Virus record (IMG/VR): IMGVR_UViG_3300027857_000016
Span: 1 to 64,000 of that record
Source: a virus
Direction: 5' to 3' (one strand)
DNA: 64,000 nucleotides
This document shows, piece after piece, positions 39,235 to 63,263 of this stretch. The translations under genes and the position numbers were made by a program. The notes beneath the pieces are model-generated. The model was not told the DNA's origin. It saw only the letters and a program-made list of their open reading frames with translations, and ran no database searches. Every line of letters begins with the position of its first letter. Position 1 is the stretch's first letter.

Positions 39235-39340
39235 ACTTGTTCTAGTGACTGATTTAGGGTATAATAAGCACATAAATATTGTTGTGTCAGGCGCTACTTG
39301 CGATAGCCCTGACCGGATACGTCTGATAAGGAGACATATC

Positions 39341-39988
39341 GTGGATAGTTTACATCATCCTGCCCATTTTCAGCAAGCCTCTTCCTTTATCGATCCTCTT
39401 CAAGGCGCACAAGCAATCTCACAAGAAGAACGGTGGCTGCCCGTTGTAGGTTACGAAGGTTACTGTGAGATAAGTAATCTTGGCAATGTTCGTAGCCTTG
39501 GGCGTGTAGTGGAAAGACCTGTACGCGGAAATTACATCAAGCGTAACCGTACTCTCAAGCCACATCTAACGCCAAAGGGTTATGCCCGTATCCAGTTAAG
39601 CCGTGATGGAGTGTTGAAAAGTCATATGGTTCATAGACTTGTAGCCCAAGCCTTCATTCCCAATCCCTACGAATTGCCTGAAGTCAATCATAAAAATGGC
39701 ATAAAGGTAGACAATCGGGTAGAAAATCTGGAATGGATAACATCTGCAGCAAACCAGGAACATGCCTACGAGATAGGACTAAGAGATCCTGTAACTAAAT
39801 ATATTATCCATTGTAAAGAACTAGATATAACCACTAAAGGGACTACTAAGATGGCTGAAGCCCTTAGAGAGCGGGGTTATGTCACTGCTAACCCTGGTGC
39901 CATTTGGAATTGCATTTTTGGAACGAGTGCAACCCATTTAGGCTTGACTTTTACAGGTTCAAGGCTAGTAACCAACAGAGTTTCATGA
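39341..39988 (+). CDS. NUMOD4-HNH homing endonuclease
   Basis: ERWLPVVGYEGYCEISNLGNVRS; VHRLVA..F..VNHKNGIKVDNRVENLEW; GTG start after AAGGAG. Confidence 0.92.
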   Translation: MDSLHHPAHFQQASSFIDPLQGAQAISQEERWLPVVGYEGYCEISNLGNVRSLGRVVERPVRGNYIKRNRTLKPHLTPKGYARIQLSRDGVLKSHMVHRLVAQAFIPNPYELPEVNHKNGIKVDNRVENLEWITSAANQEHAYEIGLRDPVTKYIIHCKELDITTKGTTKMAEALRERGYVTANPGAIWNCIFGTSATHLGLTFTGSRLVTNRVS

Positions 39989-40187
39989 AAATGGGGTTGA
40001 GGATATGACGCTCCCGCAGATTATTGAGATGTCTTGTGCTGACTGGCTCGCAGCTTCTGAGCGAAGCCAGATCGATCTCTCAAAAGGTCTTGAGATGAAC
40101 AAAGAGCGGTATCACATTGATGATCAACTGTTTCGGATTATCAAGAATACCATTAAGCAGTACGCACCAGAGAAAGATCTCGACTAA
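39975..40187 (+). pseudogene. Displaced duplicate 3' half of the DUF5662-like gene
   Basis: EFHENGVEDMTLPQIIEMSCADWLAASERSQIDLSKGLEMNKERY aligns with EHYKNGINDMNLSDMMEMGCDWLAASSRSKTGLEKGLLMNKERF. Confidence 0.8.
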
Positions 40188-40203
40188 ACAGGAGACAGAT
40201 ATC

Positions 40204-40530
40204 ATGCGAACGTTTTTGCTCATGCGCTATGATAACCCATCGGCTCCCAGTTTCTTGGATGTAGAAGTGGCTGCTGAAGGAGTTATTTTTACCGAGAAGG
40301 TTGTGCTTTATCACCTCCATGATGAATCTATCACCATTTATGACTCAGTGGATGTCCTCAAAGGGACGTGGGTGGACGATGGCACACATTTCATCCAGTT
40401 CAAGGAGGGTATACCACTTCATGCCGTAGAGCGACATTTTACTCTGGCAGAGCAACAAGAGATTGTTCAGATCGTGGAGAAACACCTGAGACAACAATTA
40501 CGGTTACGTGGAAATACCTTGATGAAATGA
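40204..40530 (+). CDS. Hypothetical phage protein (AEG-motif family)
   Basis: MRTFLL.R...AAEGVIF; AGGAG RBS. Confidence 0.65.
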   Translation: MRTFLLMRYDNPSAPSFLDVEVAAEGVIFTEKVVLYHLHDESITIYDSVDVLKGTWVDDGTHFIQFKEGIPLHAVERHFTLAEQQEIVQIVEKHLRQQLRLRGNTLMK

Positions 40531-40539
40531 GGGAAGTGG

Positions 40540-40788
40540 ATGGTGGAGCCGCCAATGGATCTACGTGTGTCAGTTGAGGGACCAGAATATCAGAAGGTGG
40601 TACATGGTGTGGGTCAACATGGCAACGGTGCCTGGTTTACGTTGACTGTTGCTGTTCCTGGCTGGACTGGTGACATCCCCTATTCCATGCTCACGGATGT
40701 TCTTTTTAGCAGGCAGAGAGGGTCCCGGCATAGATTGCGCAAACGACCTGAGCGCATGAAGAAGAGGTGGAGGAGGGATATGCGATGA
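40540..40788 (+). CDS. Hypothetical protein
   Basis: RBS; basic tail. Confidence 0.5.
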   Translation: MVEPPMDLRVSVEGPEYQKVVHGVGQHGNGAWFTLTVAVPGWTGDIPYSMLTDVLFSRQRGSRHRLRKRPERMKKRWRRDMR

Positions 40789-40994
40789 AAGAGTTACCAG
40801 TTACGCAAACTGATACCCAACAGATCCCAATTCGATGTGAGACCACAGGCCGATTAGTAGCACGGGCAGATGAGCATGGCGTCTATTTCTTTTGTCGGCA
40901 ACACAATACTCAACATCTGATGTCATGGACTGCATTGGAAAGATTAAGAGAAGATATTCGGTTGGGAGAAGTGAAGCCGAAGCAGATGGTGTGA
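40785..40994 (+). CDS. Small Com-like zinc-ribbon protein
   Basis: IRCETTGRLVAR.....FFCRQHN resembles Mu Com; GGAGG RBS. Confidence 0.5.
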   Translation: MKELPVTQTDTQQIPIRCETTGRLVARADEHGVYFFCRQHNTQHLMSWTALERLREDIRLGEVKPKQMV

Positions 40995-41121
40995 GAGAAT
41001 ATCAGCGTCATAAATTGCCTTTTCAGGCGAATTCATGGTATAATGAGATTGGTTGATTGAGTTGTTGCCCTTGCGGTGATGGAAACACCCAAGGGCGTGA
41101 TAGCAAGGAGTGACCCTTACT

Positions 41122-42237
41122 ATGGATAGCACTATACCAGAAGGTTTTAAACGATGCAACAAATGTGATCTAGTGAAGCCGCTAGATGAGTTTTATACGA
41201 TGAAGAGGCCGAATGGGATAAGGAGTCCAAAGTACATATGTAAAGAGTGTGAGAATGTAGGATCTCAAAGCCGCTTCAAGCAAAAGAAAGTACAAGCAAA
41301 CAAAAAGTGCGCCTATCCACCCTGTGATACTATCATTGTGCCTTCCGCAACTTATTGCTCTGCTCACTTCCGGTTAAACCCTGAAGAGGTTGAGCGACGT
41401 GCTTCTAAATTCCCTCCTAAATCCACCTGCATTTTTCCTGGTTGTGGCAAACTAATCTCTCGCGGAGCATCATATTGTCATTATCACTATAATCGACGTG
41501 AACGATCCCACGTCACTAAATCTAAGATGTCTATGTCTGCTAAGAGACGAGCTAATACTCCAGAAGGCAGGGCAAGAATGTCTCAAGCTGCCAGCCTTGG
41601 AGGGAAAACATGGAAGGGACGGCACCACACACAGGAAACAAGAGATAAGATACGTGGAAAGCGTGCAATGCAAATTCTTTCTCGTGAAAGTCTGGAGAAG
41701 ACGTGGAGTAAAACGCGAGGTCGACCTGGCAATCGTGGCGGTATCCCCCATACAGAGGAAGTAAAGGCGAGGATCTCAACAACCCTACAGTCTAAGCGAG
41801 AGCACTTATCGCGGAAGGGTAGAGAGCGTTATGAACGTGAGACAGAGGAGCAACGGGAAAAACGACTTAATCACTGGATACAGGCTGGACAAGAGAGTAT
41901 AGCTAAGATTTTTAGTGGTACTACCATCGAAATGTTTATTGCTCAGCAACTCGACACTCTAGGTATTGAGTATGAAATGCAAAAGAAGATTGGTTACTAT
42001 ATTGCTGACTTTTGTATTCCTTCTCATATGATAGTGATAGAAGCAATGGGATGTTTCTGGCATGGGTGTGAGCAGTGTGGATATAATGAACCTTGGCATA
42101 TACTCAAGCGAGAGAAGGAGAAAGTGCGAACCGAAAGGATAGTGAAGAAGGGATATTCTGTTGTAGCCCTTTGGGAACACGAGATTCGTCGAGCAATGCA
42201 AGATAGCGGCTATATCTTGCAATTAGGAATTGAATAG
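41122..42237 (+). CDS. Free-standing endonuclease: zinc fingers, NUMOD3, Vsr/DUF559-like nuclease
   Basis: KRCNKC..KPLDEFY; HTQETRDKI and HTEEVKARIS; YIADF...IEAMGCFWH...LWEHE. Confidence 0.85.
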   Translation: MDSTIPEGFKRCNKCDLVKPLDEFYTMKRPNGIRSPKYICKECENVGSQSRFKQKKVQANKKCAYPPCDTIIVPSATYCSAHFRLNPEEVERRASKFPPKSTCIFPGCGKLISRGASYCHYHYNRRERSHVTKSKMSMSAKRRANTPEGRARMSQAASLGGKTWKGRHHTQETRDKIRGKRAMQILSRESLEKTWSKTRGRPGNRGGIPHTEEVKARISTTLQSKREHLSRKGRERYERETEEQREKRLNHWIQAGQESIAKIFSGTTIEMFIAQQLDTLGIEYEMQKKIGYYIADFCIPSHMIVIEAMGCFWHGCEQCGYNEPWHILKREKEKVRTERIVKKGYSVVALWEHEIRRAMQDSGYILQLGIE

Positions 42238-42331
42238 GCTATACTCTAAAGTAACAAAATATAATTGATGAAGAGCCATAGCGTAAGACGCATAGGCCGT
42301 CCATTTCAAATTGAAGGGACGGCCCCTTTTT

Positions 42332-44185
42332 ATGGCAATAGACCTCTCCTCACAGACAATAGACGTTTGGCCTGAAGGTGCTGAAGAGCAGGGAATTGCT
42401 CGTTCCATGACCATGGACGAGCGCAATAAAGTTGATGACTCAGACTTTGCGTGGCCCGACGCCCCCGACCATCCAAAGTACCCCGTTCACGACCAGGCTC
42501 ATCTGGATGCTGCTGCAAAATTGATAGGACGTGCCCCTGCTGACAAACAGGACGAAATCAAAGCGCGTGCCAAAAGAATCGCTAAGCGTAAGGGTCTCAA
42601 ACTTCCTGATAGCTGGGAAGAGGGCAGCGCAAAAGACGATAGCACCAAAGATCGTGCCGTTGGAACGGAAGCGTCCTCTCCCAACATCCAGGTCACGATT
42701 GACGGAGCCATGCTTGCTGCCACCACTACGAGTACCAACGTTATTGCCGATATCACCCTCCACCGAGCAGCTGGAATGAATCACGATCCCTTCACGGGTA
42801 CACACAGTCATGCGCACCCAGCATTTGGCAGTCAAGGGGACGACGAGATGCATGAACATGAGCATAGCCACGATGGAGATGCTGACCACAAGCATAGTCA
42901 TGCCCACACGTCGGATGAAAAGAAGGATCGCTCTGTGGGTTCCATCGTTCAGGTGAGTGACCGTCATGTGATGTCTCTGCCTCTTGTGCGTATCGATGCA
43001 GCAAAACGGGAGGTCTGGGGGCAGGCAACGGCTGAAGTCCCTGACAGTTATGGGACGATCTTTGGATACTATCCCGAAGCCTGGACGCAGTGGCGAGGCA
43101 ATATCAGGGAGCAGCATGATCCCAAGAAGGCGGTAGGCAAGCGTGTTGATCTTGATTGTAATGATCAGGAACGCGCTGTTTATGTGGGATCTCGTGTGAG
43201 CCGTGGAGCGCAAGACACCTGGCTCAAGGTAGAGGACAACGTGCTGACAGGGTATAGCGCCTCCATTATCCCCGATGCTGAGTATGGCAATGACCCACGA
43301 CGCTGGCCAAAGAAAGAATACAACGGAAAAGAATATCCCTACCTCCCCCGCTATACCGTTGCTGAGTTATCCCTCGTTGATAATCCAGCCTGTCCTGGCT
43401 GCAATATCCAGATTGTGCGAGCTGATGGTTTTGCTACCGATGTTCTTGACCTGACTGAAGAAGAACCAGAGCAACCCAAACCAGTAGAGCGAGCAGGGGC
43501 CAGAGTCTCTGGCGCAACACGCGTCTCGAATCACAAATCCATTGGACATACCCTTCGAGCAGCTATCTCACAAATGCAGAACTGTGGGGGTGACTGCCCT
43601 CAGTGTACTGCTGCTATGAAAATCATTGATCCTGATGGGGATGGCGATATCGATCTTGGAGGCTATGACGACTCTGATGGTGACTGGCAATCGCTCTACA
43701 ATGGCAAACAAGAGGACATGGAGCGCGTGGTCACTGAACTCATCGAACGCTCACTCCAACCCGTCTATGCGCGATTTCAGGGCATTGCAGGCACCCTTGC
43801 TCGCAATAATGCTCTTCCAACGAATATTGATTCTCTGATTTCATCCTCCATCTCACGCGCATTTGAAGCGATTGACGCCAAGCTTACGGCGCTTCCGACA
43901 GAGGCAAGCCTCGCTGAAGTACGCGCTGAATTGTCAGCGGTAAAAGAGCGGGTTGTCCAGATTGCAGAGCAGCCGATGCCAGGGGGGCCGATTCTCAATG
44001 CAGGCGTGATGCCACGGGCGATTGAAAAGCAACTCCCAACTGATCCTCCCTACGCACCACCACGACCATCGATGGGGTCGGTGTATGACGCGATTGCAAC
44101 GATGTCACGGCAGGGTCAGCTCGATACCGAAGATAAACAAGTTGATGCAATGTACGCTGGCCTGCTGGCACAGCGCAGGAGATAG
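42332..44185 (+). CDS. Prohead protease/scaffold fusion
   Basis: N-terminal DFA.P...KYPVHD.AH (DUF6582-like); His-rich tract; IREQH..KAVGK, LTGYSAS, ELSLVDNPACP protease motifs; C-terminal coiled coil. Confidence 0.85.
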   Translation: MAIDLSSQTIDVWPEGAEEQGIARSMTMDERNKVDDSDFAWPDAPDHPKYPVHDQAHLDAAAKLIGRAPADKQDEIKARAKRIAKRKGLKLPDSWEEGSAKDDSTKDRAVGTEASSPNIQVTIDGAMLAATTTSTNVIADITLHRAAGMNHDPFTGTHSHAHPAFGSQGDDEMHEHEHSHDGDADHKHSHAHTSDEKKDRSVGSIVQVSDRHVMSLPLVRIDAAKREVWGQATAEVPDSYGTIFGYYPEAWTQWRGNIREQHDPKKAVGKRVDLDCNDQERAVYVGSRVSRGAQDTWLKVEDNVLTGYSASIIPDAEYGNDPRRWPKKEYNGKEYPYLPRYTVAELSLVDNPACPGCNIQIVRADGFATDVLDLTEEEPEQPKPVERAGARVSGATRVSNHKSIGHTLRAAISQMQNCGGDCPQCTAAMKIIDPDGDGDIDLGGYDDSDGDWQSLYNGKQEDMERVVTELIERSLQPVYARFQGIAGTLARNNALPTNIDSLISSSISRAFEAIDAKLTALPTEASLAEVRAELSAVKERVVQIAEQPMPGGPILNAGVMPRAIEKQLPTDPPYAPPRPSMGSVYDAIATMSRQGQLDTEDKQVDAMYAGLLAQRRR

Positions 44186-44187
44186 AC

Positions 44188-45963
44188 ATGACTGTAACGG
44201 ATAACGTCATACAGGGTCAATTGCCACCAGGCGCACAAAAGAGCGTTGGCGATAGTAAACATGCCGCTGGTGTGATTGATGAGTCCTTGTATACCGAAAC
44301 CGATGTGCTTGCTAATCAGGCTCGCATGATGGCACGTGCTCGCAATGGCATCGCGTATGAAAACGGAGACGAATTTTCAGACCGCTTCGTGAGGGATGTG
44401 CGCGGGATGAACATGCCAAAACAATACGTTCATCAACGATTGAGCCAGGATACCATCAACGCTCTTCAGACTGGCAGCCAACAGCGCGATCAGCAGTATA
44501 TCGGGAATAACGCCGATTGGACCGGGTACTATCTGGAGCCATTGGCGAAATTTATTGTGCCGTATGACACTCCAGTGCGCAATATGCTGCCACGCTCACC
44601 AAGTGTAGGCATCGATGTCGAGAACTGGCGTGCCATCACGGATGTGTTTGGCGGTACTGGCCCAACGGTCGGACAGTTCATCCTCGCACAGCAGACCGCA
44701 CCACAGAAGGCATCATATACCTGGGCGAATAAAAGCAATGTCCTGCGTCAACTTGCCTTCTCCGACGTGGTGACCTTTGAGTCTGAGTTGTTTGGTCGGA
44801 TGTTCGAGCCGGATGTTCGAGCCAAGGTTGCTAGTAAACTTGCCCCGTCGCTTATGCTTGGGCAAGAGGTCTGGTACTTAAACGCCGCGCAGAACCTGTG
44901 GAATCCACCGCCTCCAAATACGCCAACCACAGCAACAACAGGTGGAACCGTTGCCGCTGCTACCTATTGGATCATCACAACCGCCGTGAATGCACAGGGC
45001 GAGACGTTGGCATACTCATTGCCACCAGCTTCTTCTTCTGTCCCATTCGCTATCTCTCAGACTACCTCTGGGAGTACCAGCACACTCTCATTCAATATCA
45101 TGAGGGTCCCGAACGCGGTCAGTTACAACGTCTATGTCGGATCTGGTTCAACACAACCTGCAAACTCTGCAATGTGGCGACAGTCAGCAACCACCCAGTT
45201 TGGCGGTTCGACTGCCCTCAATGATCCCGGCGGACTAGCCAGTGGGTACTTCAACGTCACGATGAGTGCAGCGCCTGCCACTTCTGGTACAGCATACTCA
45301 ACGGTGGTGACCGCAGGCAATACGGCGGTTGCCTATACTTCTGGTGGTGGTGGCACTCCAGCCAACCAGACACTGACCTTTGATGGCATCCAGTCACTCA
45401 CCTACCTCAATGCGGGCACACTTTCAACCGTTGGTGTTGGTGGCGAGACAGCAACAGTCAGACGCGTATCAGATACAGGTGGCGCTCTCGCTAAGACGGA
45501 TATTGACGGGTGGCTAGAGGCCATGTACCTCAATGCCCGTGCCAACCCTGAATGCCTCCTTGTCTCCGTGAAAGATCACAAGGCCCTCAGCAATATCATC
45601 ACCACATCCACCAATTATCGCGTCAACGTCCAGCCCACCGGGCCGTCTCAGACCGATTTGGTCGGAGGAGGCCGTGCGACGAAATGGATCAATCAGACGA
45701 CAGGACGAGTAATGGACATCATTATGACTCCGTATCTGATGCAAGGGACGATTTTGGCTCTTTCGCTTACCCTTCCTTTCCAGGTAGCAGAAATTGATAA
45801 ACCGCCATTACGGGTATCTGTGAACAGAGATATGTGGGCAATGGAATATCCACCTGACCAGTCTCACACTACACAATGGCTCTATAGCTGTTTTTCAAGC
45901 GAGACAGTTGTAAACCAATTTTTGGGCGGTGCTGGAGCGCTCGTAGGCTTAGTGACTGCTTAA
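44188..45963 (+). CDS. Major capsid protein with a Thr/Ser-rich inserted domain
   Basis: Follows the protease; YDTPVRNMLPR, FDGI motifs; FN3/Ig-like insert (TYW..TAVN..GET...SYNVYVG). Confidence 0.85.
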   Translation: MTVTDNVIQGQLPPGAQKSVGDSKHAAGVIDESLYTETDVLANQARMMARARNGIAYENGDEFSDRFVRDVRGMNMPKQYVHQRLSQDTINALQTGSQQRDQQYIGNNADWTGYYLEPLAKFIVPYDTPVRNMLPRSPSVGIDVENWRAITDVFGGTGPTVGQFILAQQTAPQKASYTWANKSNVLRQLAFSDVVTFESELFGRMFEPDVRAKVASKLAPSLMLGQEVWYLNAAQNLWNPPPPNTPTTATTGGTVAAATYWIITTAVNAQGETLAYSLPPASSSVPFAISQTTSGSTSTLSFNIMRVPNAVSYNVYVGSGSTQPANSAMWRQSATTQFGGSTALNDPGGLASGYFNVTMSAAPATSGTAYSTVVTAGNTAVAYTSGGGGTPANQTLTFDGIQSLTYLNAGTLSTVGVGGETATVRRVSDTGGALAKTDIDGWLEAMYLNARANPECLLVSVKDHKALSNIITTSTNYRVNVQPTGPSQTDLVGGGRATKWINQTTGRVMDIIMTPYLMQGTILALSLTLPFQVAEIDKPPLRVSVNRDMWAMEYPPDQSHTTQWLYSCFSSETVVNQFLGGAGALVGLVTA

Positions 45964-46047
45964 ATAAATAGTGTATCTATTAGTCCGATCTGGCTCAAGA
46001 AGCCGGTTTATCGGTTGACCTTAACAACAAAATAGAGTACAATGCAT

Positions 46048-46126
46048 GTGGTTGTCTAGGGACGGATTGATCATCCGTTCCGAAGAAGCGTTACCTTGAC
46101 GCTCTGGCAACCACCACGATCAAGGT
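46048..46126 (+). ncRNA. c4-like three-way-junction leader RNA
   Basis: GTGGTTGTC/GGCAACCAC closing stem, two inner hairpins, loop ACCTTGA complementary to TCAAGGT at 46120; TTGACC-17-TACAAT promoter. Confidence 0.6.
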
Positions 46127-46148
46127 TAAACTTAAGGAGTTTAGAACT

Positions 46149-47021
46149 ATGCCTCAGTGTGGCATCTATCAGATCGTAAACACGATCACTGGTGACTGTT
46201 ATGTTGGCAGTGCTGTTAATTTTCATGTACGCAAATTGCGTCACCTCAACGAATTACGGCAAGGTATCCATCATTCTCTCCATCTCCAACGTGCATACGA
46301 TAAGTACGGCAAAGATGTCTTCGTTTTCACTTTTCTCGAAGATGTTATAAGAGATCGAGATACCCTCTTCCAGCGTGAAAGCCATTGGGTACAGCAACTA
46401 CATCCTCAGTACAACACAGGCAAAGTAAATGCAACTGCCCTTGGCGCGAAACGGACAGAAGAAACCCGTAAGCGCATAACTGAAAAAGCTACGGGACGGA
46501 AGCATTCTGAGGAAACTAGGCGAAAGCAATCAGAACGTAAGTTCGGTATCAAACAATCTCCCGAATTCATACAGAAGCGCTCAGAAGGCATGCTTGGTCA
46601 CGCAGTTTCTGAGGAAAATCGCCAGAAATTTGCTGAAAGAAGTCGTGAGATGTGGGCAAATCGCACACCTGAAGAAAAGCGTGCGATTGTAGAAAAGCGT
46701 TCACCTGAAGTTCAAGAGAAGAATCGAGAACGAATGCGTGAACTTGGCAAAGATCCTGACAGGATTGCACATATCAAGCAAGTGCATTTGGGTGCCAAGC
46801 GGTCTGAAGAGACACGTCAGAAGCAACGTGAGGCGTGGGTAAGACGGAAACAAAGACAACTGGAGAATCCGAAACCTCCAGTAGAAAATACGCAGCCTCC
46901 CAAAGAGTATAAGTACTCTGAGGAGACTCGAAGAAGGATGTCTGAAGGGAAAAAGGCATCCTGGGACAAAAAGAAAGCCGCGCAAGCGGAAACGATACAA
47001 CAACAAAATCTGTTTGATTAA
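46149..47021 (+). CDS. GIY-YIG homing endonuclease with NUMOD3 repeats
   Basis: GIYQI.N......YVGSA...R..RH...LQRAYDKYG; repeated SEETR.K.SE. Confidence 0.93.
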   Translation: MPQCGIYQIVNTITGDCYVGSAVNFHVRKLRHLNELRQGIHHSLHLQRAYDKYGKDVFVFTFLEDVIRDRDTLFQRESHWVQQLHPQYNTGKVNATALGAKRTEETRKRITEKATGRKHSEETRRKQSERKFGIKQSPEFIQKRSEGMLGHAVSEENRQKFAERSREMWANRTPEEKRAIVEKRSPEVQEKNRERMRELGKDPDRIAHIKQVHLGAKRSEETRQKQREAWVRRKQRQLENPKPPVENTQPPKEYKYSEETRRRMSEGKKASWDKKKAAQAETIQQQNLFD

Positions 47022-47075
47022 CTCCTCTTCCTCCATTGGAACGAGTTAACAAACGTTCTAATGGAGGTTTCCTCT

Positions 47076-47423
47076 ATGGACAATCCGAATGTGGCATCCA
47101 CGACTGGCGAGGCGATTCCTTTTTCGACGTCTGTCCCACCTGTGGTGAGCAAGTCTGGTCACCCATTCCAGCAAGTGGAACCATTTGCTGTTGCTGCAAA
47201 TACCTCGCAAACACCGATGAGTTTTGAGACAACCGTCAAAACCTCCTATGAACTTGCGAACAGTGAAGCCGTACAAGGGGCAAAATACACCTTTGGGCAG
47301 CAGGGGTCCATTCCTGGACAGCCACCGATGGTACCAAAGGGGTCGCTTCCATCATTTGAAAAGCTCGATATGAAACCATTGCCTATGCAGGGGTTACCTA
47401 CGCCCCCAGACTATAAACCGTAA
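47076..47423 (+). CDS. Pro-rich hypothetical (virion-associated?)
   Basis: GGAGG RBS; ends in DYKP. Confidence 0.6.
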   Translation: MDNPNVASTTGEAIPFSTSVPPVVSKSGHPFQQVEPFAVAANTSQTPMSFETTVKTSYELANSEAVQGAKYTFGQQGSIPGQPPMVPKGSLPSFEKLDMKPLPMQGLPTPPDYKP

Positions 47424-47463
47424 TCAGGGCATCCATGTGGGATGGAAGGGATGAGAGAGAACG

Positions 47464-48906: not shown

Positions 48907-48932
48907 ATCGAGGAAGAAGGAGGGGCATCATC

Positions 48933-49154
48933 ATGACACACGCGAGTCCAGGAGATCCGCTCAACCCTGCGCAGGAAACGAGTGCAGAAGGGTTGCCAGG
49001 AGGCGGGTTTCTCATTCCATCTCATGTGATGAACGTGGGAAGTGGGCAGTATAGCATGTGTACGCCCGTGCTCCTGCCAGTTCCTCTTCAACACGCTCAA
49101 TACAAGAGTACCGACGTGCCTTTTCGTCCATTGCGGGCAGACTACAAGCCGTGA
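48933..49154 (+). CDS. Small hypothetical protein
   Basis: GGAGG RBS; ends in DYKP. Confidence 0.5.
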   Translation: MTHASPGDPLNPAQETSAEGLPGGGFLIPSHVMNVGSGQYSMCTPVLLPVPLQHAQYKSTDVPFRPLRADYKP

Positions 49155-49160
49155 GGGTGA

Positions 49161-50063: not shown

Positions 50064-50092
50064 TTCATGAGAGGTGAAGCATTTCAGAGGAC

Positions 50093-50407: not shown

Positions 50408-50455
50408 TATTTCACCTTGTTTTACCGTATATAAGTGATAGTGAGGAGATACAAT

Positions 50456-50683: not shown

Positions 50684-50793
50684 AGGCGACGGGAAGAGGA
50701 CGGTGAGGGGGAGGCGCGGTGTGGATGCTGTGTTCGTAGTGGGTGATCGCCTCGCCCGATCCGTCGCCTCTCATAAAAGAGAAAGAATGCAGG

Positions 50794-51963: not shown

Positions 51964-52060
51964 CCTAATAAACCTATAACCCGTTATGTTGGGCAATGCA
52001 TAACACTGTATTTTATAGCGTGTTTGAGAAACGGTATGCAAAGGTGGAAGGGGGCGTGGC

Positions 52061-52504
52061 ATGAGCTTTGGCACAACACCAACCTCGACCACCCCTTTAA
52101 CAACCAACCAATTTCCTGTGTCTGCCGTGTATATCCCTGGCACCAGTGGAAGCAACTTGACGGCCTTGCAGGGTGGTCCTGCATCAACAGACGGGTTAGG
52201 GAATGTTTCAGCACCTGTCGTGGTGGTCTTTGGTGGAACGGCTACCTTTCCTGTGCCGTCCAATAGCGGTGTTACCGTGGTAAGAAACAGTGCAGGGCGT
52301 CTTGCGACGGTGATCGTGACCACCAGCGGACCAGCACAACTCAACATCTACGACAATGCGAGTCAGGCAAGCGGAACGATCATCGGGGCGATACCGGCCA
52401 ATGCGGCGGTTGGATCGGTCTACGCATTTAACAGTCCTGCCGCCCTTGGGATTGTGGCGAACTCGGTGGCATCCTGCTGTAGCGTCACTATTTGCTATTA
52501 CTAA
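52061..52504 (+). CDS. Decoration/fibre-like protein
   Basis: Shares N-terminal FP..VY...GG and C-terminal GRL..IYDNA modules with 47464-48906. Confidence 0.7.
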   Translation: MSFGTTPTSTTPLTTNQFPVSAVYIPGTSGSNLTALQGGPASTDGLGNVSAPVVVVFGGTATFPVPSNSGVTVVRNSAGRLATVIVTTSGPAQLNIYDNASQASGTIIGAIPANAAVGSVYAFNSPAALGIVANSVASCCSVTICYY

Positions 52505-52531
52505 GGTATGTGAGGGGGAGAGGGAAGAGCG

Positions 52532-53782: not shown

Positions 53783-53797
53783 TCATGAAAGCGTTGT

Positions 53798-55627: not shown

Positions 55628-55646
55628 CCCTGGAGAGAAAAGAGAA

Positions 55647-58640
55647 ATGCCTTTTACGATTGCAACAACAAACAATGCCCAAGGGACTTCGTACCCGCAG
55701 AACTCAACAGTATCAATTGATGGGAGTGCGACTGCATCTATTTTCTGGTACGACGGAGCACAGATGAACTTTTCTACTGCTTCTCCGCCCTATAGTGCTT
55801 GGTCACATCAGGCGACACTTGAAGCAGGATCATCCCCTGCACTTTCAAGCTTCCCTACAACGCCTGGGCACATTTTGGATGTTGGCGTAATCACTGGGGT
55901 GGGTGTGCAGTGGCACTTCTATCTCAACAACGCAATCAGCCAGAGCGCTAGCGTGGTGAGTGATTCTGCATACACAACGGCAACTCAATCAGCCCAGCAC
56001 TATCGTGATATCCATACCCGCTATTGGGCCGTCGTATCTGATCACACTGGGGGCAGTGTCGAGGTGTATGAAGCGACGACGCCTGGGACGTCGAACTGGA
56101 CTGTCAGTTTCAGTGCCAGCGGTGTTACTGCCACGACTTCTCCCGTTGCGGCCATCTGTGGAAACTTCCTGGTCGTGGCGTATCAGACGGCACCGACTAC
56201 TTTTACCTATGTCCGTATTGATGTCTCTGTGTCAACGCTTGGAAGTTGGAGCACGCCAAAAACGTTCTCCCTTGCCGCATCGACTGCTTCCTCGACCTTC
56301 TGCTTGCGTGGCAACCCATCGGGCAAGGGTATGTTTGTCTACAACGGAACCGCTGGTATTGCGGCGCTCTCCTATGATCCTGTGTCGGATACCTGGGGGA
56401 CGGAAACGGCGCTTACCTCCAACGGCAGTGATACGCAACCGACACTCGCGACGGTTGGCTCCAACTTTTATGCGGTCTGGTGCAGTTATGTTAGTGTGAA
56501 CAACTACTCCATCGACTTCAACGTCTGGCGAGGAGGAACGCAGACGTGGGATATCGATAAGATCAATCTAGTGCCAGCAGGAGCAAACAATCATTTTCCA
56601 CAGGTTGCCTATGGCTCAAATATCATCGGAGTGGCCTACACGGTGGGAACTGCTGCCCCATACAGCATCAATTTTGAGATAGCACTTGCAGACGGAGGAC
56701 TTATCCCACTCTCGCTATATGGCATTAACACTTCTTCTGTCACTCTTTCGACAGCATCTACACTTGCCACACAAACAGGTGGAACGGCGACGGCAACTCC
56801 CATTACTAGCGCTCCGAGTAGTGGGACAAGTCTCTATATGGAAGCGCTCTCGCAAGGTGGCACGGGCAGCACAAGCGCATCCCTTCCAGCGCAAAGCGGC
56901 AAAGGGTGGCTCTACGAATCAACAGTCTTGGAAAACAGGAAAATCCCCGCAGGAAACTGGTCAGCCTTCGTAACCGTCGAGAATGGGTCTCGTATCAACG
57001 GTCAGACGCTTTCTAGTATGACTATTCGGTTCTCTGTGCGCTCGTCATCTGGCGTCTACACGACCATCGGAACTATTGCGCTCACCAATCCTTTCGTCCC
57101 GCACAGTCTTCAGGTGTTCTCATTTCCGGCTACGGCAATGCCAGGTGTGTCCTTTGGTGCTGGGGATAAGCTCTACATAGACTATTTCTATCAAAGCGGG
57201 ACTGGTGCCAATGCATGGGCGAGCGATGCGATGGCAATCACAATGACCTTTGATTATGCACTCGGAATGAGTAATAATCTCCAGGTCGCCACACCTGGGT
57301 ATGAAGCAGACCCTCCGCTTACTGTATACGGGAGTGCCGCTGCGTCTACCACACTTATAACAGCGGATAAGCTAGCCACAACTCTGGGTGGAACAGAAAC
57401 TTCTTCACGGACAACGGCTCCGGCCAGTGGTACAAGTCTTTGGATGGAGGCGCTCAGTCAGGGAGGAACAGGCACAACCAACGCCAGTATTCCTGCGCAA
57501 AGCGGGAACGGATGGCTCCTCGACTCAGCCCTGCTTGAAAATCAGTCCATGAACTCAGGGAACTGGTCAGCCTCCGTCGCGGTGCGGGACTTTACACGAT
57601 CTCTTACGCTCGGAAATATGACTATTCGCTTCTCTAAGCGCTCTTCTGGAGGAGTCTACACCACCATCGGGTCTTTAACACTTGCCAGTCCCGCTGTCAC
57701 AACATCCAGATCTGTGTTTGCATTTAGCGCCACGGCTCTCTCAGGGGTCTCATTCGTGACTGGGGATAAGTTATACCTGGACTTCTTCTACCAATCATCT
57801 GGAACGGCCGGATGGGCCAGTGATGCGATGGACATTTTTATCACGACGGCAAGTACAGCAGGTCTGGCCTCTGACTTGCAGGCAGCCACCCCTGGATATA
57901 CTGCAACACCGAATTATTATGCAACCGTGCTGCGAGATAATCCTATCCGTCTGTACAAACTCAACGAGACAAGCGGAACATCTGTCACGGATTACGGGTC
58001 GCAGGCGCAAAATGGCACCCTTCACGGCACGGTCACCCTCAATCAAGCGAGCATGATCCCCTCAAACGCAGCAGACGGTTCCATGCTCTTTGATGGTACG
58101 ACCGGATACATGCAAGCTGCAACGACAGGGCTTCCAACAGGTGCTCAGGTCTGGAGCATGGAGGGGTGGATTACGATGCCAACGGTGCCTGCAACGGGCA
58201 TCCACATTATGGCTGAGTGGGGAACCAATACCTCCAATGAGGCGGCGGCTATTGGCATCTTTACGGGGGTCATCCGCTTAAATACCTACTCCGCCAATAA
58301 CATTCTCGGCCCAACTGCCGTGAATGGAACAACCTATTATATTGTTGGCACGTACGATGGCACGAACCTGCGCCTTTATGTGAACGGTGCCCTGCAAGGA
58401 TCGCCGCTTGCAGCAACGCCTGCAATTGCGCTGACCTATTGCTACATTGGAACGGAGGATAATGCGGCGGATGACTTCTTCAGCGGGAAAATTCAGGGGG
58501 TTGCTTTCTACAATACTGTCCTAAGCGCTACTCAAGTCTCTACCCACTACAATGCGGGTATCACGATATTTTCTCCGCAAGGGGCCATTGCCTCCCCTGA
58601 ATTGAAAGCAGGAGTCATCACAGGAGGGATTAATAGTTAA
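55647..58640 (+). CDS. Large receptor-binding-like protein with duplicated domains and C-terminal LamG/ConA lectin domain
   Basis: Two about-200-aa repeats (SLYMEALSQGGTG...AQSG.GWL); YKLNETSG...FDG...YIVGTYDG..LRLYVNG...LSATQV..HY. Confidence 0.85.
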   Translation: MPFTIATTNNAQGTSYPQNSTVSIDGSATASIFWYDGAQMNFSTASPPYSAWSHQATLEAGSSPALSSFPTTPGHILDVGVITGVGVQWHFYLNNAISQSASVVSDSAYTTATQSAQHYRDIHTRYWAVVSDHTGGSVEVYEATTPGTSNWTVSFSASGVTATTSPVAAICGNFLVVAYQTAPTTFTYVRIDVSVSTLGSWSTPKTFSLAASTASSTFCLRGNPSGKGMFVYNGTAGIAALSYDPVSDTWGTETALTSNGSDTQPTLATVGSNFYAVWCSYVSVNNYSIDFNVWRGGTQTWDIDKINLVPAGANNHFPQVAYGSNIIGVAYTVGTAAPYSINFEIALADGGLIPLSLYGINTSSVTLSTASTLATQTGGTATATPITSAPSSGTSLYMEALSQGGTGSTSASLPAQSGKGWLYESTVLENRKIPAGNWSAFVTVENGSRINGQTLSSMTIRFSVRSSSGVYTTIGTIALTNPFVPHSLQVFSFPATAMPGVSFGAGDKLYIDYFYQSGTGANAWASDAMAITMTFDYALGMSNNLQVATPGYEADPPLTVYGSAAASTTLITADKLATTLGGTETSSRTTAPASGTSLWMEALSQGGTGTTNASIPAQSGNGWLLDSALLENQSMNSGNWSASVAVRDFTRSLTLGNMTIRFSKRSSGGVYTTIGSLTLASPAVTTSRSVFAFSATALSGVSFVTGDKLYLDFFYQSSGTAGWASDAMDIFITTASTAGLASDLQAATPGYTATPNYYATVLRDNPIRLYKLNETSGTSVTDYGSQAQNGTLHGTVTLNQASMIPSNAADGSMLFDGTTGYMQAATTGLPTGAQVWSMEGWITMPTVPATGIHIMAEWGTNTSNEAAAIGIFTGVIRLNTYSANNILGPTAVNGTTYYIVGTYDGTNLRLYVNGALQGSPLAATPAIALTYCYIGTEDNAADDFFSGKIQGVAFYNTVLSATQVSTHYNAGITIFSPQGAIASPELKAGVITGGINS

Positions 58641-58882
58641 TGCCTGTACTCACCATTCCCCGCACATTTGGGGGAACCCTTTTGATCACCCTGGCAGGGC
58701 CAACGAGCCAGATGGCATCTCTGGCAATTACGGCACTGTTCCGTGATGGTCAAATGGGAGGTGTATGGCGTGATGGTGAAGTTTCATCGCTTGGGCGTGA
58801 TGGACAGGTTCAGGCGAGATCTCGTGACGGTGAAGTGTCTTCAGCCGGGCGTGATGGGGTGATTGTGATGGGAGGGAGGTAG
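58640..58882 (+). CDS. Small protein with five 9-aa RDG repeats
   Basis: RDGQMGGVW-RDGEVSSLG-RDGQVQARS-RDGEVSSAG-RDG; TAATG overlap. Confidence 0.6.
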   Translation: MPVLTIPRTFGGTLLITLAGPTSQMASLAITALFRDGQMGGVWRDGEVSSLGRDGQVQARSRDGEVSSAGRDGVIVMGGR

Positions 58883-58885
58883 CAC

Positions 58886-59206
58886 GTGCCAATTAGCCCG
58901 TGGGCGCTTGGGCAACTCAGTCCTGTTTGGACCATCGTCATGGCAAGAGACAGCAAACCAATGGATCTCACGGGTGTGACCACGAATCAATTGAGTTTGC
59001 TCATCTATAACGCCAATCATGTGCAGATAGGTACGGGAGCAGGCACCTTTGTGATTGTTGATGTCAATCCAGGGGTCGTGACATATCAATTGGTTTCTGC
59101 TGACCTTCCGCTCACGACTGGCACCTATTACTTACGTGTGAAGATCAACTTTAATAATGTCTCGCCTGACATGAGCGATTACATCAACTGGGTCATCCAG
59201 GCGTGA
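58886..59206 (+). CDS. BppU N-terminal-like Ig-fold protein
   Basis: PMDLTG.T...GVVTYQL...DL...GTYY. Confidence 0.7.
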   Translation: MPISPWALGQLSPVWTIVMARDSKPMDLTGVTTNQLSLLIYNANHVQIGTGAGTFVIVDVNPGVVTYQLVSADLPLTTGTYYLRVKINFNNVSPDMSDYINWVIQA

Positions 59207-59233
59207 GGAATAGAGGAGAAAGGTGGTGAGTGT

Positions 59234-59656
59234 ATGGCGGATGGACTAATCAATGTTGCTTTTGATGCAGCGTCACTTGGGATCATTGACCATCTCGGTC
59301 AGTTCGGAACATTTCTTGAACCTGAGATAGCGTCAGCTATGACCAAGATTGGCGATCTATTAGTGGCTGCGGCCGAGGCAAACACATGGACCGCCTTCCA
59401 AAATCCCACGGGGCATCTCGCCTCTCAAATTGCCGCACAACTCCAAGGTCCGCTAGAAGTGATTATCACGGTAGATGTTCCCTATGCCTGGAGGCTGGAG
59501 GAGGGCTTCCACGGGGCTGATTCTCTAGGGCGTGTCTACGACGAAGTTGCTGAACCGTACGCCATGCCCGCATTGATGGCAAACGAAGATGAGATTATGG
59601 TAATCGTGGGGCTTGCTACTGCTGAAGCGTTTGCTTCGATGGGTGGGGGGGTGTAG
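59234..59656 (+). CDS. HK97 gp10-like neck/tail completion protein
   Basis: TGHLASQI...VPYAWRLEEG...PYAMPAL. Confidence 0.75.
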   Translation: MADGLINVAFDAASLGIIDHLGQFGTFLEPEIASAMTKIGDLLVAAAEANTWTAFQNPTGHLASQIAAQLQGPLEVIITVDVPYAWRLEEGFHGADSLGRVYDEVAEPYAMPALMANEDEIMVIVGLATAEAFASMGGGV

Positions 59657-59657
59657 A

Positions 59658-60152
59658 GTGCCAGCACCGAATCAGCCTTCAACGATTGCGGTTGCTCAGG
59701 CAATAGCAGGTTTTGCACAGTCCCTTGTCTATCCTTCAGGGATCTTGGTGTATAGCATCGTTTCACTGGGTGAGCAAAAGGACATTACCACAAATGTAGC
59801 AGGAGGAAATGCGTGCTTGGAGGTCTATGCAAACAAGGATGATTCACAACGGCATGCCTTCGGAGGCAAAATTTGGGATGAGCAGACATGGTTTCTGCTC
59901 TCCCTTGTCGGGCTGGACAATGCACAAGCAGCAGAGACCTTGATCTATGCCGTACGTGATGCGCTTGTTCAACCATTTCAGACCCATGCAACCCTCGGAA
60001 ATGCAGGCAGCGTCTTTCACGCGCAACTCAAGCCGGGAACAGGAAGGTTCCTCAAAGTACTGCGAAATGGGCAATGGCTGCGAGCACATTTAGTCGAGGT
60101 GATGTCACGTTCAGAATGGTTTGTTATAACACCACCGGGAATAACAGCATGA
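59658..60152 (+). CDS. Tail terminator protein, probable
   Basis: Size and position between the gp10-like and tail tube genes. Confidence 0.6.
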   Translation: MPAPNQPSTIAVAQAIAGFAQSLVYPSGILVYSIVSLGEQKDITTNVAGGNACLEVYANKDDSQRHAFGGKIWDEQTWFLLSLVGLDNAQAAETLIYAVRDALVQPFQTHATLGNAGSVFHAQLKPGTGRFLKVLRNGQWLRAHLVEVMSRSEWFVITPPGITA

Positions 60153-60448
60153 GTATACAAACATATAGTTTTTATGGGTCAAGTGGTGTGATCCCTGGCG
60201 TCCCTGGACAATTCAGTGCAGGAACATGGGTCACGATTGATACGACAACCATGCAGATTACTGCCCAGGGGTTTCTGGCACCCATCTTCTCACCATCGGT
60301 GAGTGATGTGGATGAGACCTTTATGGACTATGGCGAGGCTGGTGTTATTCCAGAGGTCGCCAATCAACCCATAGATGCAGGGCAGATTGAGGTGGTTGAC
60401 GCAACCACAGATACGGTGGTCAGTGATCACTTTTTGCCATCATCATAG
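60149..60448 (+). CDS. Hypothetical structural-region protein
   Basis: ATGA overlap. Confidence 0.55.
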   Translation: MSIQTYSFYGSSGVIPGVPGQFSAGTWVTIDTTTMQITAQGFLAPIFSPSVSDVDETFMDYGEAGVIPEVANQPIDAGQIEVVDATTDTVVSDHFLPSS

Positions 60449-60531
60449 AGACATGTTGTCTTTTATTCTGTTCATAGTGTGAAGGCTACCTCTTGTGAGG
60501 TGGTGGGAGATGGAAGGGAGAACATAAGAGT

Positions 60532-62133
60532 ATGCCTATTTCGGCCACCGCTGCACGCGGAATCGTTGATATTATGCTAGAGGCGAATAACGGTGAACAG
60601 TTATTACTTGCCTCTACTCCGGTTATTGCAACAATAACCGGCATCACTGCTCCTAGTGGTAGTACGGGTATGAGATTTCACATACGCATTACCAATTGGA
60701 CGGCTTCTGGGACCGTGACGATTACTGGCACTGGCACACCAGGCAACACGGAGACCTACAACATTGCCGCTCCAACTGCTCAACAGACCCAGAGTGCGCA
60801 GTTAGCAAGCAATGAGTATGTCAGTGTGAATGCCTACACGGCAATCACGAATATTACCACCACTGGACTCACCAACGGCACTATCACTGTGTATGGTATT
60901 TACGCTGGCAAGTTTACCGTGCCTTCCATCATGACCTCCAACCGTGTGGTGAAAGTCTATAGCCCGAACGAGCACAATAGTTTCCTGGAGCGTGACAAGA
61001 AGATCCTTCACCTTGTGAACAACACGACTGTTGATCTCAAGCAAGACGTCTACGCGGATTTGAGCTTGTGGTGGCCCTACATGATGATGGGGGCACCTAC
61101 CATCACGACGTTGCCATCCACACCCACGTCGCTCTTTGCTGCTGCTGCCATCTCGGCAACCCAGTCTCTGACGACACAGCCAACGGCACCGGGCATGAAG
61201 CTCATCTTTACCATTACTGCCTTTACCGTTGCAGGAACATTGACCATTGCCGGGACATCCTATGGTCAAGCAGTGACCGAAACAATTTCCATCACTGCTG
61301 CCGGTACCTACTACTCTAGCAATGTCTATTCTGCGGTGAATGCTTCTGGTATTACCAACGCCACGACGGCTGCGACGATGGCGATAACTGGCGTCTATGG
61401 CTGGCAGTTGGTCTTCTTATCAGGCGGCAACCTCTATAGTGCAGCGATTGAGTGGTACGACGGTGCAGGCTCATGGACGCATCCATTCTCCTTCGCCACT
61501 GAGGGCGATTTCGATATCAAGGTCCAGACGGAGGCGACCCTGACCCTCAAAGGCAAGGCACAAGACAAATTGCCAATTGGCGATAGAACGACGACCCCAC
61601 TTACGGGCGTGAATCGTATCGCCTCCATCGGTGCCAACCTCAACGATGAGCCAATTGTGGGATGGCAAAGTGCTGTGTATCTTGACCCTATTACGGGCAC
61701 GTCGCAAACGACCGCCTTTATACACTGCGAGGAGTTAAAGGTCGCCCTCAAGGTGCCGCAAGAAGATCATTTTACCTTTACGAATAGCCAGAACTACAAC
61801 AGGGCCTATGCCGTCAAGCGGGAATGCACCTGTGAGGCCGTCCTCGATTTCATCGATATGCTGCAGTGGGAACAATTCAGGCAAAACCTCAAGCAGTACC
61901 TCGCCTTCCAGTTTTTGGGTCAGTACATCGGGACCACGGGTGGGTCAGCGCAATTCAAAAGTTGGACTTGGACGCTTCCTGTCCGAAGTGATGGGCAATT
62001 CGATGTGACCTCTGATCCAGCAAAGGGCAACGTGCAAGCCAAGGCGATGTTTAGGACGGAATATGATTCGTCACTGGGGGGGAGCTACAAACTCGTGGTG
62101 GTTACACAACTTCCGCCTACCTACCCCGCGTGA
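60532..62133 (+). CDS. Tail tube protein with two inserted Thr-rich domains
   Basis: Position before the chaperone and tape measure; duplicated GM....IT..T..GT.TI.GT...TET..I inserts. Confidence 0.8.
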   Translation: MPISATAARGIVDIMLEANNGEQLLLASTPVIATITGITAPSGSTGMRFHIRITNWTASGTVTITGTGTPGNTETYNIAAPTAQQTQSAQLASNEYVSVNAYTAITNITTTGLTNGTITVYGIYAGKFTVPSIMTSNRVVKVYSPNEHNSFLERDKKILHLVNNTTVDLKQDVYADLSLWWPYMMMGAPTITTLPSTPTSLFAAAAISATQSLTTQPTAPGMKLIFTITAFTVAGTLTIAGTSYGQAVTETISITAAGTYYSSNVYSAVNASGITNATTAATMAITGVYGWQLVFLSGGNLYSAAIEWYDGAGSWTHPFSFATEGDFDIKVQTEATLTLKGKAQDKLPIGDRTTTPLTGVNRIASIGANLNDEPIVGWQSAVYLDPITGTSQTTAFIHCEELKVALKVPQEDHFTFTNSQNYNRAYAVKRECTCEAVLDFIDMLQWEQFRQNLKQYLAFQFLGQYIGTTGGSAQFKSWTWTLPVRSDGQFDVTSDPAKGNVQAKAMFRTEYDSSLGGSYKLVVVTQLPPTYPA

Positions 62134-63050
62134 TCTGACCATAAAGTAGGAGCATCAGAAGGAGGTAATTTTTTTATGGCATTTCGCTTTTTGTGTGCTA
62201 AGGACATCTTAGCACGGGTTTCAGGCGAGGGTTTTCGCCCTCGACTAGCATTGCCTATGGCACGACAATGCTCTTCAGAAAGTTTCCTCCCTTTGAGCGA
62301 GGTGGACGTTTTTGCCCGTGTCTCATCTGACTTTTTCCGCCCTCTGCTTGCCTTAGCCATATTAGCACGGGCTTCAGCAGAAAAAGGTTTACGCTTTACG
62401 CCTTTCTTTGCTTCAGATATGTTTTTGCATTCTTCCTGTGATTTCACACGTCCTTTATGGGCTTTTGAGATTTTAGCACGAGCTTCTAGTGAGGGCGTCA
62501 CACCTTTCATGCCTGCTCGTATGTTTTCTTTCCATTCGGAAGAAAAAGGTGGGCGTTTTCGACCTTTTGTCGTAGCAGACATCTTAGCTTTGGTTTCATC
62601 CGATAAATGCTTTCCCTTATTCGCTTCGGAAAGTCTTTGCGCTAAATCAGTTGTCGCGTACGCATTTCTCACGCTCGCAGAAATCTTTGCCCTGATCTCT
62701 GGTGTCAATGATTTCATTCCAATTCCACCCGGAGCTTCATTTGTGAGAGGTGCTCCTTGAGAACGGTAGTATTGAATCCAGTATTGCTCACGCTCTTGCC
62801 ATTCATCGACAGAGACTTCATCGATGATATCCAGGAGTGGTTCCAATCCGAGCGATTTGAGATGTTTGACCCAGCGGCCTCTATGTGTCGCTTCTTCGCT
62901 ATTCCTAATATGTACTCTCAATCGGTGCTGGGGATCATTCGACTTGCCCACGTATCGAACTTCGCGTGTGACAGGATCGCTAAGGATGTATATCCAGGTA
63001 GTTTGAGGGAGAGGGTTGTCCAATTGATCATGAGGTGGTACAGTGTCCAC
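62121..63050 (-). CDS. GIY-YIG homing endonuclease with NUMOD3 repeats (antisense to the tail operon)
   Basis: WIYILSDP....RYVGKS..P..RL..H...EREQYWI...LTN..PGG; many KG....S.E.RAK.S repeats; GTG start after AAGGAG. Confidence 0.92.
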   Translation of the reverse strand: MDTVPPHDQLDNPLPQTTWIYILSDPVTREVRYVGKSNDPQHRLRVHIRNSEEATHRGRWVKHLKSLGLEPLLDIIDEVSVDEWQEREQYWIQYYRSQGAPLTNEAPGGIGMKSLTPEIRAKISASVRNAYATTDLAQRLSEANKGKHLSDETKAKMSATTKGRKRPPFSSEWKENIRAGMKGVTPSLEARAKISKAHKGRVKSQEECKNISEAKKGVKRKPFSAEARANMAKASRGRKKSDETRAKTSTSLKGRKLSEEHCRAIGNASRGRKPSPETRAKMSLAHKKRNAIKKLPPSDAPTLWSDHAG

Positions 63051-63263
63051 GATATGTCTCCTTATACAGACGTATCCACGCCAGGGGATGGGTCCAACCA
63101 TCGCTCTGGCACAACATTTTACCTCCTCAGTATACCACATACCAAACATTCGTTCAAGCAATTTCACCGTATAATTTCTTGTTTTTCGTTACTCAAAAAC
63201 AGAAAACAAGAAGGGCGATACTAATTAAGATGATGTTGATAGAAGTGATGAGGAGAGAACAAC

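Follow-up and report, generated by a model that had tools for sequence, protein, structure and literature searches.

Why should homing endonuclease genes of unrelated families open with one and the same leader, and what does this leader do? The question is raised by IMG/VR virus record IMGVR_UViG_3300027857_000016, an 80-kb contig of a soil phage whose first 64 kb (64,000 nucleotides, referred to here as the window) were analysed. A first-pass annotation, made from the letters alone, had noted that a NUMOD4-HNH_3, a Vsr-like and a GIY-YIG nuclease gene of the window share a leader with a built-in antisense promoter, and had proposed a portable sense/antisense module, possibly an undescribed RNA motif. 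Homing endonucleases must be kept at very low levels and, to our knowledge, the only documented ways of doing so are those of phage T4, namely hairpin masks, late promoters and autorepression. We present here a family of leader cassettes linked to homing endonuclease genes and argue, with a probability that we put at roughly 0.66, that each cassette most likely makes a small structured cis-antisense RNA which represses translation of the nuclease.

The cassette has three parts: a sigma70-type promoter with a TTGC-type -35 box, a spacer of 17-18 nt and a TATAAT-like, often TG-extended -10 box; a two-hairpin 5' leader, about 65-75 nt long; and the first ~12 codons of the gene, which would hide a second, outward-facing promoter of the same flavour. 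Re-reading of the sequence confirmed the sense promoters of all three window genes (Table 1), and a stem with a bulged C followed by a second hairpin at AAGGAG, which reaches to the start codon, was found in each leader. The Pfam assignments to three unrelated nuclease families hold as well. The TGTTG at the head of the leaders is present in all three and is only a loose consensus across the wider family. Three copies proved to be too low a count, as a whole-contig structure scan and a covariance model located a fourth, beyond the window, at the head of a PF01844 HNH gene whose protein starts MSDTIPDT. All four local genes encode catalytic domains of homing-endonuclease families. The near-identity described for the leaders of the HNH_3 gene (39315-39345) and the GIY-YIG gene (63046-63077) amounts to 97% over 31 nt.

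The fourth HNH protein has more than 100 metagenome relatives, many of which start MSDTIPQ, MDTIPQD or MDTLPPH. A strict hairpin scan of 240 loci fetched around such relatives returned six clean extra leaders. A covariance model (R1) was built from ten leaders and covers TGTTG to the start codon only, and therefore the sequence upstream and downstream of it can be tested independently. R1 found 44 sites at E<0.01 in the fetched loci, and a second model (R2) was built from these sites. Searching the 80-kb contig with R2 at E<=1 gave exactly four sites, all heading nuclease genes; R2 also found further copies in two phage records, one of them heading an HNH_3+AP2 gene, and one site in Ktedonobacter racemifer. 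When the RNA model alone was used, with no protein information, matches were obtained in 10 of the 121 genomes of the class to which K. racemifer belongs, and the genes downstream comprised two GIY-YIG, two Endonuclease_7, one HNH and one HNH_3+AP2, along with one open reading frame (ORF) without clear family and two truncated ORFs. Overall, this search with covariance models built from the leaders, which the first-pass annotation had suggested, uncovered more than 50 further copies in soil metagenomes, viral contigs and bacterial genomes (Ktedonobacter, Deinococcus).

Six architectures lie downstream of these leaders (HNH PF01844, NUMOD4+HNH_3, Vsr/DUF559+NUMOD3, GIY-YIG, HNH_3+AP2 and Endonuclease_7), and they account for all downstream genes that are full-length and match a nuclease in Pfam; no downstream gene of a non-nuclease family was met among the copies found. 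The carrier proteins are only 30-45% identical. Nuclease family members that are leader-less are also without the N-terminal extension or without the TAnnnT motif described below, and two cassette-free GIY-YIG genes of the window match this link between cassette and extension, as they start straight with the catalytic domain. Rfam 15, including RNA-OUT and HEARO, gave no match over the leaders at the gathering score and none at E<=1 on eight leader-bearing loci, in agreement with the suggestion of an undescribed motif. Together with the covariation and the conserved antisense boxes reported below, these copies and architectures support a portable sense/antisense module common to unrelated nucleases, and they point to a self-contained cassette of about 140 bp that is moving between nuclease families.

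Table 1. Cassette elements and nuclease-related genes of the contig, in window coordinates unless stated otherwise (R1 and R2, covariance models; E, E-value)
Feature	Position	Strand	Details	Basis
Sense promoter, HNH_3 gene	39237-39265	+	TTGTTC 39237-39242, 17 nt, TATAAT 39260-39265	Sequence
Leader 1	39277-39343	+	TGTTG 39280-39284; hairpin 1 39286-39313 with bulged C39292; hairpin 2 39316-39340 around AAGGAG 39328-39333; GTG start 39341-39343	R1 64.4 bits; R2 E 1e-10; fold, covariation
Predicted antisense RNA 1	39270-39343	-	5' end predicted at ~39341-39343; two perfect hairpins predicted, anti-Shine-Dalgarno CUCCUU in first loop; -25.2 kcal/mol, z -4.4, 0/200 shuffles as good (sense strand z -1.6)	Fold of reverse strand
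Candidate outward promoter, HNH_3 codons 3-12	39347-39376	-	TTGCTG 39376-39371, 18 nt, TAAACT 39352-39347	Sequence, family conservation, codon bias
Sense promoter, Vsr-like gene	41015-41044	+	TTGCCT, 18 nt, TGgTATAAT (TATAAT 41039-41044)	10/12 consensus matches, TG-extended
Leader 2	41060-41124	+	TGTTG 41063-41067; hairpin 1 41068-41095 with bulged C41074; hairpin 2 41100-41123, AAGGAG 41105-41110 in its 5' arm; ATG 41122-41124	R1 56.2 bits; R2 E 8e-13; fold
Predicted antisense RNA 2	41053-41124	-		Reverse strand -29.9 kcal/mol, z -6.5
Candidate outward promoter, Vsr-like codons 4-13	41131-41159	-	TTGCAT 41159-41154, 17 nt, TGgTATAGT (TATAGT 41136-41131)	Sequence, family conservation
Sense promoter, GIY-YIG gene	63129-63157	-	TTGAAC 63157-63152, 17 nt, TGgTATACT (TATACT 63134-63129)	Sequence, promoter scan
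Leader 3	63048-63119	-	TGTTG 63116-63112; hairpin 1 63110-63080; hairpin 2 63076-63051 around AAGGAG 63063-63058; GTG 63050-63048	R1 70.3 bits; R2 E 1.5e-13
Predicted antisense RNA 3	63048-63126	+	Same direction as flanking plus-strand phage genes, next gene starts 63264; minimum-free-energy structure = 85% of ensemble	Reverse strand -31.5 kcal/mol, z -6.4
Candidate outward promoter, GIY-YIG codons 3-12	63016-63044	+	TTGTCC 63016-63021, 17 nt, TGgTACAGT (TACAGT 63039-63044)	Sequence, family conservation
Fourth cassette copy	contig 78450-78515 (L003:14450-14515), outside window	-		Whole-contig structure scan; covariance model
NUMOD4 + HNH_3 homing endonuclease gene	39341-39988	+	GTG start; NUMOD4 from residue 30, first 29 residues a cassette-borne extension	Pfam
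Vsr/DUF559-type endonuclease gene with NUMOD3 motif	41122-42237	+	ATG start; N-terminal zinc-ribbon-like CxxC region	Pfam, translation
GIY-YIG + NUMOD3 homing endonuclease gene	62121-63050	-	GTG start; catalytic domain from residue 19, residues 1-17 a cassette-borne extension	Pfam
Cassette-free GIY-YIG gene	16617-17213	-	Domain begins at residue 3-4; own promoter TTGATT-17-TATAGT (17214-17330, -)
Cassette-free GIY-YIG gene	46149-47021	+	Domain begins at residue 3-4; own promoter TTGACC-17-TACAAT (46020-46148, +)
DUF5662 gene	38761-39234	+
Diverged second copy of DUF5662 C-terminal part (3' half)	39975-40184	+	58% over 59 amino acids

Similarity of this kind could simply reflect shared ancestry, with a leader that was copied recently and promoter-like words in the first codons that are due to chance or to a conserved N-terminal peptide. 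The near-identity of two local leaders and the recurrence of peptides such as MSDTIPQ and MDTLPPH fit such an origin, as does the observation that the antisense promoter words, taken in the window alone, are not above chance; this last point also counts against the antisense promoters described by the first-pass annotation. We accept these promoters because of the comparison with the other copies, in which they are conserved, and not because of the window alone. As both antisense boxes lie downstream of the stretch covered by R1, the model could not select for them. An antisense TTG, a spacer of 16-19 nt and TAnnnT, with the -10 box at +4 to +9, are nevertheless present in 31 of the 43 copies, the TAnnnT falling at codons 3-5 and a TTGC 17-18 nt further on.

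With codons selected by peptide and not by DNA, the Ile/Leu/Val codon is nTA in 37 of 39 cases (background 20-29%, log10 P about -21.6) and the codon before it starts with A in 38 of 39. Ser is encoded by AGT in 8/9 (background 22%) and Thr by ACT in 15/18 (34%); within the peptide KQC, Lys is AAG in 15/15 (46%) and Gln is CAA in 14/15 (57%), and the Gly of GN is GGC in 7/7 (28%). These biases fix T-12, A-11 and T-7 of the -10 box and the TTGC of the -35 box. The family's sense promoters have, at the homologous position, a TTGC-type -35 and a TATAAT-like -10 box, and 23 of 26 use TTGC, so that this unusual fourth base is common to the antisense -35 box. Copies with a different peptide still have the -10 box, out of frame, as in L076 (TGTATAAT), L078 (TGGTATGAT), L183 (TGCTAGAGT) and L178 (TGATAGAAT) and also in L174 and L182, and such out-of-frame boxes are often TG-extended. 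By this geometry, an antisense RNA starting 6-8 nt past the -10 box would begin at the start codon. Its first base is predicted to be a purine, since 43 of the 44 copies have a pyrimidine at -1. The candidate outward promoter is thus conserved at the level of nucleotides. With synonymous positions fixed, a -10 box that survives changes of frame and peptide, and carriers that are only distantly similar across six architectures yet have compensatory changes in all pairs of the fold (see below), shared ancestry as the sole explanation appears very improbable.

We then asked to which strand the conserved fold belongs. The counts that follow come from an alignment of 44 sequences fitted to the model's own structure, which favours that structure, and the margins are large: standard pairs fill 86% of cells, compared with 59% in shuffles and 34-53% when the partners are slid. 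All 21 pairs have changed on both sides, with helix 1 paired in 93% and helix 2 in 76% of cells. In the sense strand, A.C or C.A occupies 78 cells and G.U only 9 (one terminal U.G pair left out). The unpaired cells are mostly A.C/C.A and therefore become G.U pairs in the reverse complement. Indeed, the reverse strand is the more stable one in 39 of 43 leaders (mean -28.5 vs -22.8 kcal/mol, Wilcoxon p 7e-8), whereas shuffles of the same composition predict the opposite sign (+2.4 kcal/mol, p 2e-13) because the sense strand is G-rich; in 43 of 43 leaders the observed strand difference lies below this composition control. The preference holds for each hairpin, at -19.0 vs -15.8 and -8.6 vs -5.0 kcal/mol (reverse vs sense). 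In the four local copies, the antisense RNAs are predicted to fold into two perfect hairpins with z between -4.4 and -6.5, compared with -0.7 to -3.1 for the sense leaders. We therefore favour the opposite strand as the one in which the conserved fold would act, and the leaders illustrate clearly how counts of A.C and G.U can reveal the strand to which a conserved fold belongs.

These results bear directly on the alternative that the hairpins act in the nuclease mRNA, either by masking the ribosome site or as an operator for a repressor protein or the nuclease itself, with no functional antisense RNA involved. Both hairpins do fold in the sense RNA too, and in phages T4 and Aeh1 endonuclease genes are under autorepression and under the control of hairpins in which the ribosome site is sequestered (PMC2988022). 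The base of hairpin 1 is closed in 34 of 44 copies by a conserved U.G pair, which is compatible with the sense strand alone and, along with a constant bulged C and CUNR-like loops, resembles a surface for recognition by protein or RNA on that strand. Against this, the excess of A.C over G.U cells leaves the sense fold weaker than its mirror although composition favours the sense strand. Hairpin 2 in the sense RNA, weakened by conserved A.C mismatches, has a mean of only about -5 kcal/mol with 1.7 of the 4 bases of the Shine-Dalgarno tetramer paired, so that this site is largely open; the AAGGAG that had been described as buried lies mostly in the loop. Furthermore, the sense -10 box sits 13-17 nt upstream of TGTTG and upstream of both hairpins in all copies, and therefore no transcript would escape the hairpin as happens in T4. 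An action in the mRNA also leaves unexplained why TAnnnT and TTGC, spaced like promoter boxes, are conserved at the level of codons. We regard control through the mRNA fold as rather improbable and masking of the T4 type as unlikely; the core interpretation of the first-pass annotation is supported, except for this burial of the ribosome site, which is not.

The T4 and Aeh1 genes (I-TevI, I-TevII, I-TevIII, segB and mobE) resemble the cassette in that different endonuclease families share a common regulatory architecture over the ribosome-binding site (PMC2988022). In those genes the hairpin is very stable, and a promoter inside or beside it yields late transcripts that are unable to form it (PMC2988022), whereas in the cassette the mRNA hairpin is weak, both arms would always be transcribed and the fold fits the opposite strand. 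The same review describes no antisense RNA control and brings up antisense transcripts solely as something that insertion might cause incidentally (PMC2988022).

A further alternative is that the outward promoter mainly drives the neighbour on the opposite strand, thereby repairing an operon interrupted by the insertion, with the hairpins as a 5' stabiliser and repression being incidental. The seg and mob genes of T4 carry embedded promoters for downstream genes of the host phage (PMC2988022). On our contig, the GIY-YIG and the fourth HNH gene lie backwards among plus-strand genes, with the outward promoter facing genes at 63264 and at contig position 78611, respectively, and in a crude count the upstream neighbour is divergent in 12 of 26 cassettes. 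In 13 of the 26, however, as well as at 39341 and 41122, the neighbour is co-oriented, and the outward promoter would read into its 3' end. The conserved start and fold, moreover, would make the predicted RNA cover exactly the ribosome site of the nuclease, and the promoter is kept in bacterial chromosomal copies, including one before a decayed ORF of 57 codons. As a main function, supplying the neighbour is improbable; it is plausible as a secondary role for backwards insertions and cannot be the function common to the family.

A repressive antisense RNA would account for these features as follows. The outward promoter would start transcription at or beside the start codon, and the RNA would open with the complement of this codon, run through the anti-Shine-Dalgarno hairpin and hairpin 1 and continue into the sense promoter. 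Complementarity of such an RNA to the nuclease mRNA would be complete over the leader and the ribosome-binding region, and the RNA would fold into two stable hairpins, presenting the anti-Shine-Dalgarno in the loop or arm of the first. By pairing with the mRNA it may block translation or trigger decay, and repression may be reinforced by convergent transcription through the sense promoter. For the backwards genes, two of the four here, the outward promoter may also feed the next phage gene.

Several observations weigh against this proposal, in addition to the chance-level promoter words of the window and the U.G pair that fits the sense strand alone. In twelve of the 43 copies, no TTG stands at the distance expected of a -35 box. 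Measured by the Escherichia coli consensus, the antisense promoters are weak, with 3 of 6 matches in the -35 box, and a consensus promoter scan of the window calls none of them; it calls only the sense promoters of the Vsr-like and GIY-YIG genes. On the antisense strand, the scan gave no terminator-like signal after hairpin 1. The pair counts depend on an alignment fitted to the structure that they test, and the copies are related, so that counts across them overstate independence. A look-up of sequencing runs for 38700-42400 gave one run containing this DNA, a soil-metagenome DNA run that may be the source sample, and no RNA run. Finally, we infer from sequence the firing of the promoter, the ends of the RNA and repression itself. 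Several other roles of the leader were considered and set aside. Long-range pairing of a 5' UGUUG with downstream CAACA-like words is at odds with the family, in which TGTTG is not conserved and GCAA keeps a fixed distance of 17-18 nt from TAnnnT. Hairpin 1 has no U tract and no terminator-like site in the scan, as would be needed for an intrinsic terminator on either strand, and many members have 6-nt loops, which does not suit mimicry of an anticodon loop. ORFs that run through the leaders (39209-39988 and 62121-63167) were taken as chance read-through, the Shine-Dalgarno and start codon being kept at a fixed distance in all copies.

The closest precedent is IS10/Tn10, where RNA-OUT, a small, stable stem-loop RNA of 69 nt whose first 35 nt complement the initiation region, keeps ribosomes from binding and brings about multicopy inhibition (PMC5006887). 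As in the cassette, the target is the enzyme gene of a mobile element, and the promoters face each other with the outward one at the 5' end of the coding region (PMC5006887). This layout is seen in our sequences, as a candidate outward promoter in the 5' coding region facing the gene's own promoter in 31 of 43 copies and a stable, conserved antisense fold. The two are unlike in other respects: there is no sequence or Rfam relationship, the predicted cassette RNA has two hairpins rather than one, and IS10 controls a transposase whereas the cassette heads six homing-endonuclease architectures and travels between unrelated genes. RNA-OUT acts in trans, with repression growing with copy number (PMC5006887), whereas the cassette RNA is predicted from sequence. 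In E. coli, the promoter of the antisense RNA SymR is similarly embedded in the ORF of a tightly repressed, nuclease-like toxic protein, SymE, whose translation SymR represses (PMC1891008); SymR/SymE is a single chromosomal locus under LexA, neither a portable cassette nor a homing endonuclease. In IS200, art200 is a cis-encoded small RNA opposite the 5' untranslated region of the transposase that acts together with mRNA structure, and it differs in element and enzyme and in being Hfq-dependent (PMC4513863). Our literature search found no published description of antisense RNA control of homing endonucleases. Cis-antisense control itself is already known, and the cassette would represent its use on a new class of genes, packaged in mobile form.

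If this reading is true, a conserved antisense-RNA cassette exchanged among six architectures would constitute a new control principle for selfish nuclease genes, present in soil phages as well as in the chromosomes of Ktedonobacter and Deinococcus. The shared N-terminal peptides would then be explained as promoter-bearing codons, annotation would gain a new RNA family, and the cassette would be a small sense/antisense switch of natural origin, about 140 bp in length. Since related cassettes sit on several nuclease genes per genome, the antisense RNA may work in trans as well, in which case repression might rise with cassette copy number, and cross-talk would be conceivable between cassettes that share the ribosome-site hairpin, such as those of the HNH_3 and GIY-YIG genes here. 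We tentatively extend this to the idea, for which we would give less than even odds, that recombination can join the whole unit of promoter, antisense-RNA gene and N-terminal codons to any nuclease body and that the small RNAs cross-react, forming a common brake, sensitive to copy number, on the selfish nucleases of a genome.

Some individual loci deserve mention. In IMGVR_UViG_3300005557_000002 (L084:2588-3003), two cassettes about 290 bp apart stand back to back, heading an Endonuclease_7 and an HNH gene. With this arrangement, transcription from either outward promoter would enter the other nuclease gene in the sense direction. The record has a third copy at a distance of 6 kb. In K. racemifer (NZ_ADVG01000003.1, ~977.6 kb; L246:1501-1736), the cassette (54 bits) and its candidate antisense promoter are intact, and the ORF behind them, with just 57 codons, looks like the remnant of an HNH gene. 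The HNH gene of the fourth local copy, which lies backwards, has no TTA, CTA or TCA among its 14 Leu and 20 Ser codons, and therefore the mirror frame (L003:13475-14554, +; contig 77475-78554, outside the window) is open for 359 codons on the operon strand, spanning the HNH gene, its leader and promoter; the same frame in the other five nuclease genes has 5-12 stops. The two cassette-free GIY-YIG genes have, besides their own promoters, hairpin-rich leaders of 50-100 nt that are unlike the cassette leader.

The contig also encodes a large terminase subunit, an amidase and long structural-type ORFs, and no T4-like markers were found in it. Right after the HNH_3 gene lies a second, diverged copy of the 3' half of the DUF5662 gene (Table 1), as expected if an endonuclease cassette invaded this gene and brought along a replacement 3' half. 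No relative without the insert was found by megablast of 39000-43000 against phage records, which gave no match, or in scans of viral contigs; an exact-pattern scan of viral contigs for the common 31-nt hairpin likewise gave no match, and these contigs held no confirmed relative of the Vsr-like protein. Elsewhere in the window are an OmpR-type response regulator (3153-3854, +), a ParB-domain DNA methyltransferase (8815-10152, +) and a CoiA-like nuclease (11313-12122, -). An Rfam tRNA match at 4281-4378 (-), which covers the full model at 45 bits and is not called by ARAGORN, is 98 nt long and may be a tRNA with an insertion or intron.

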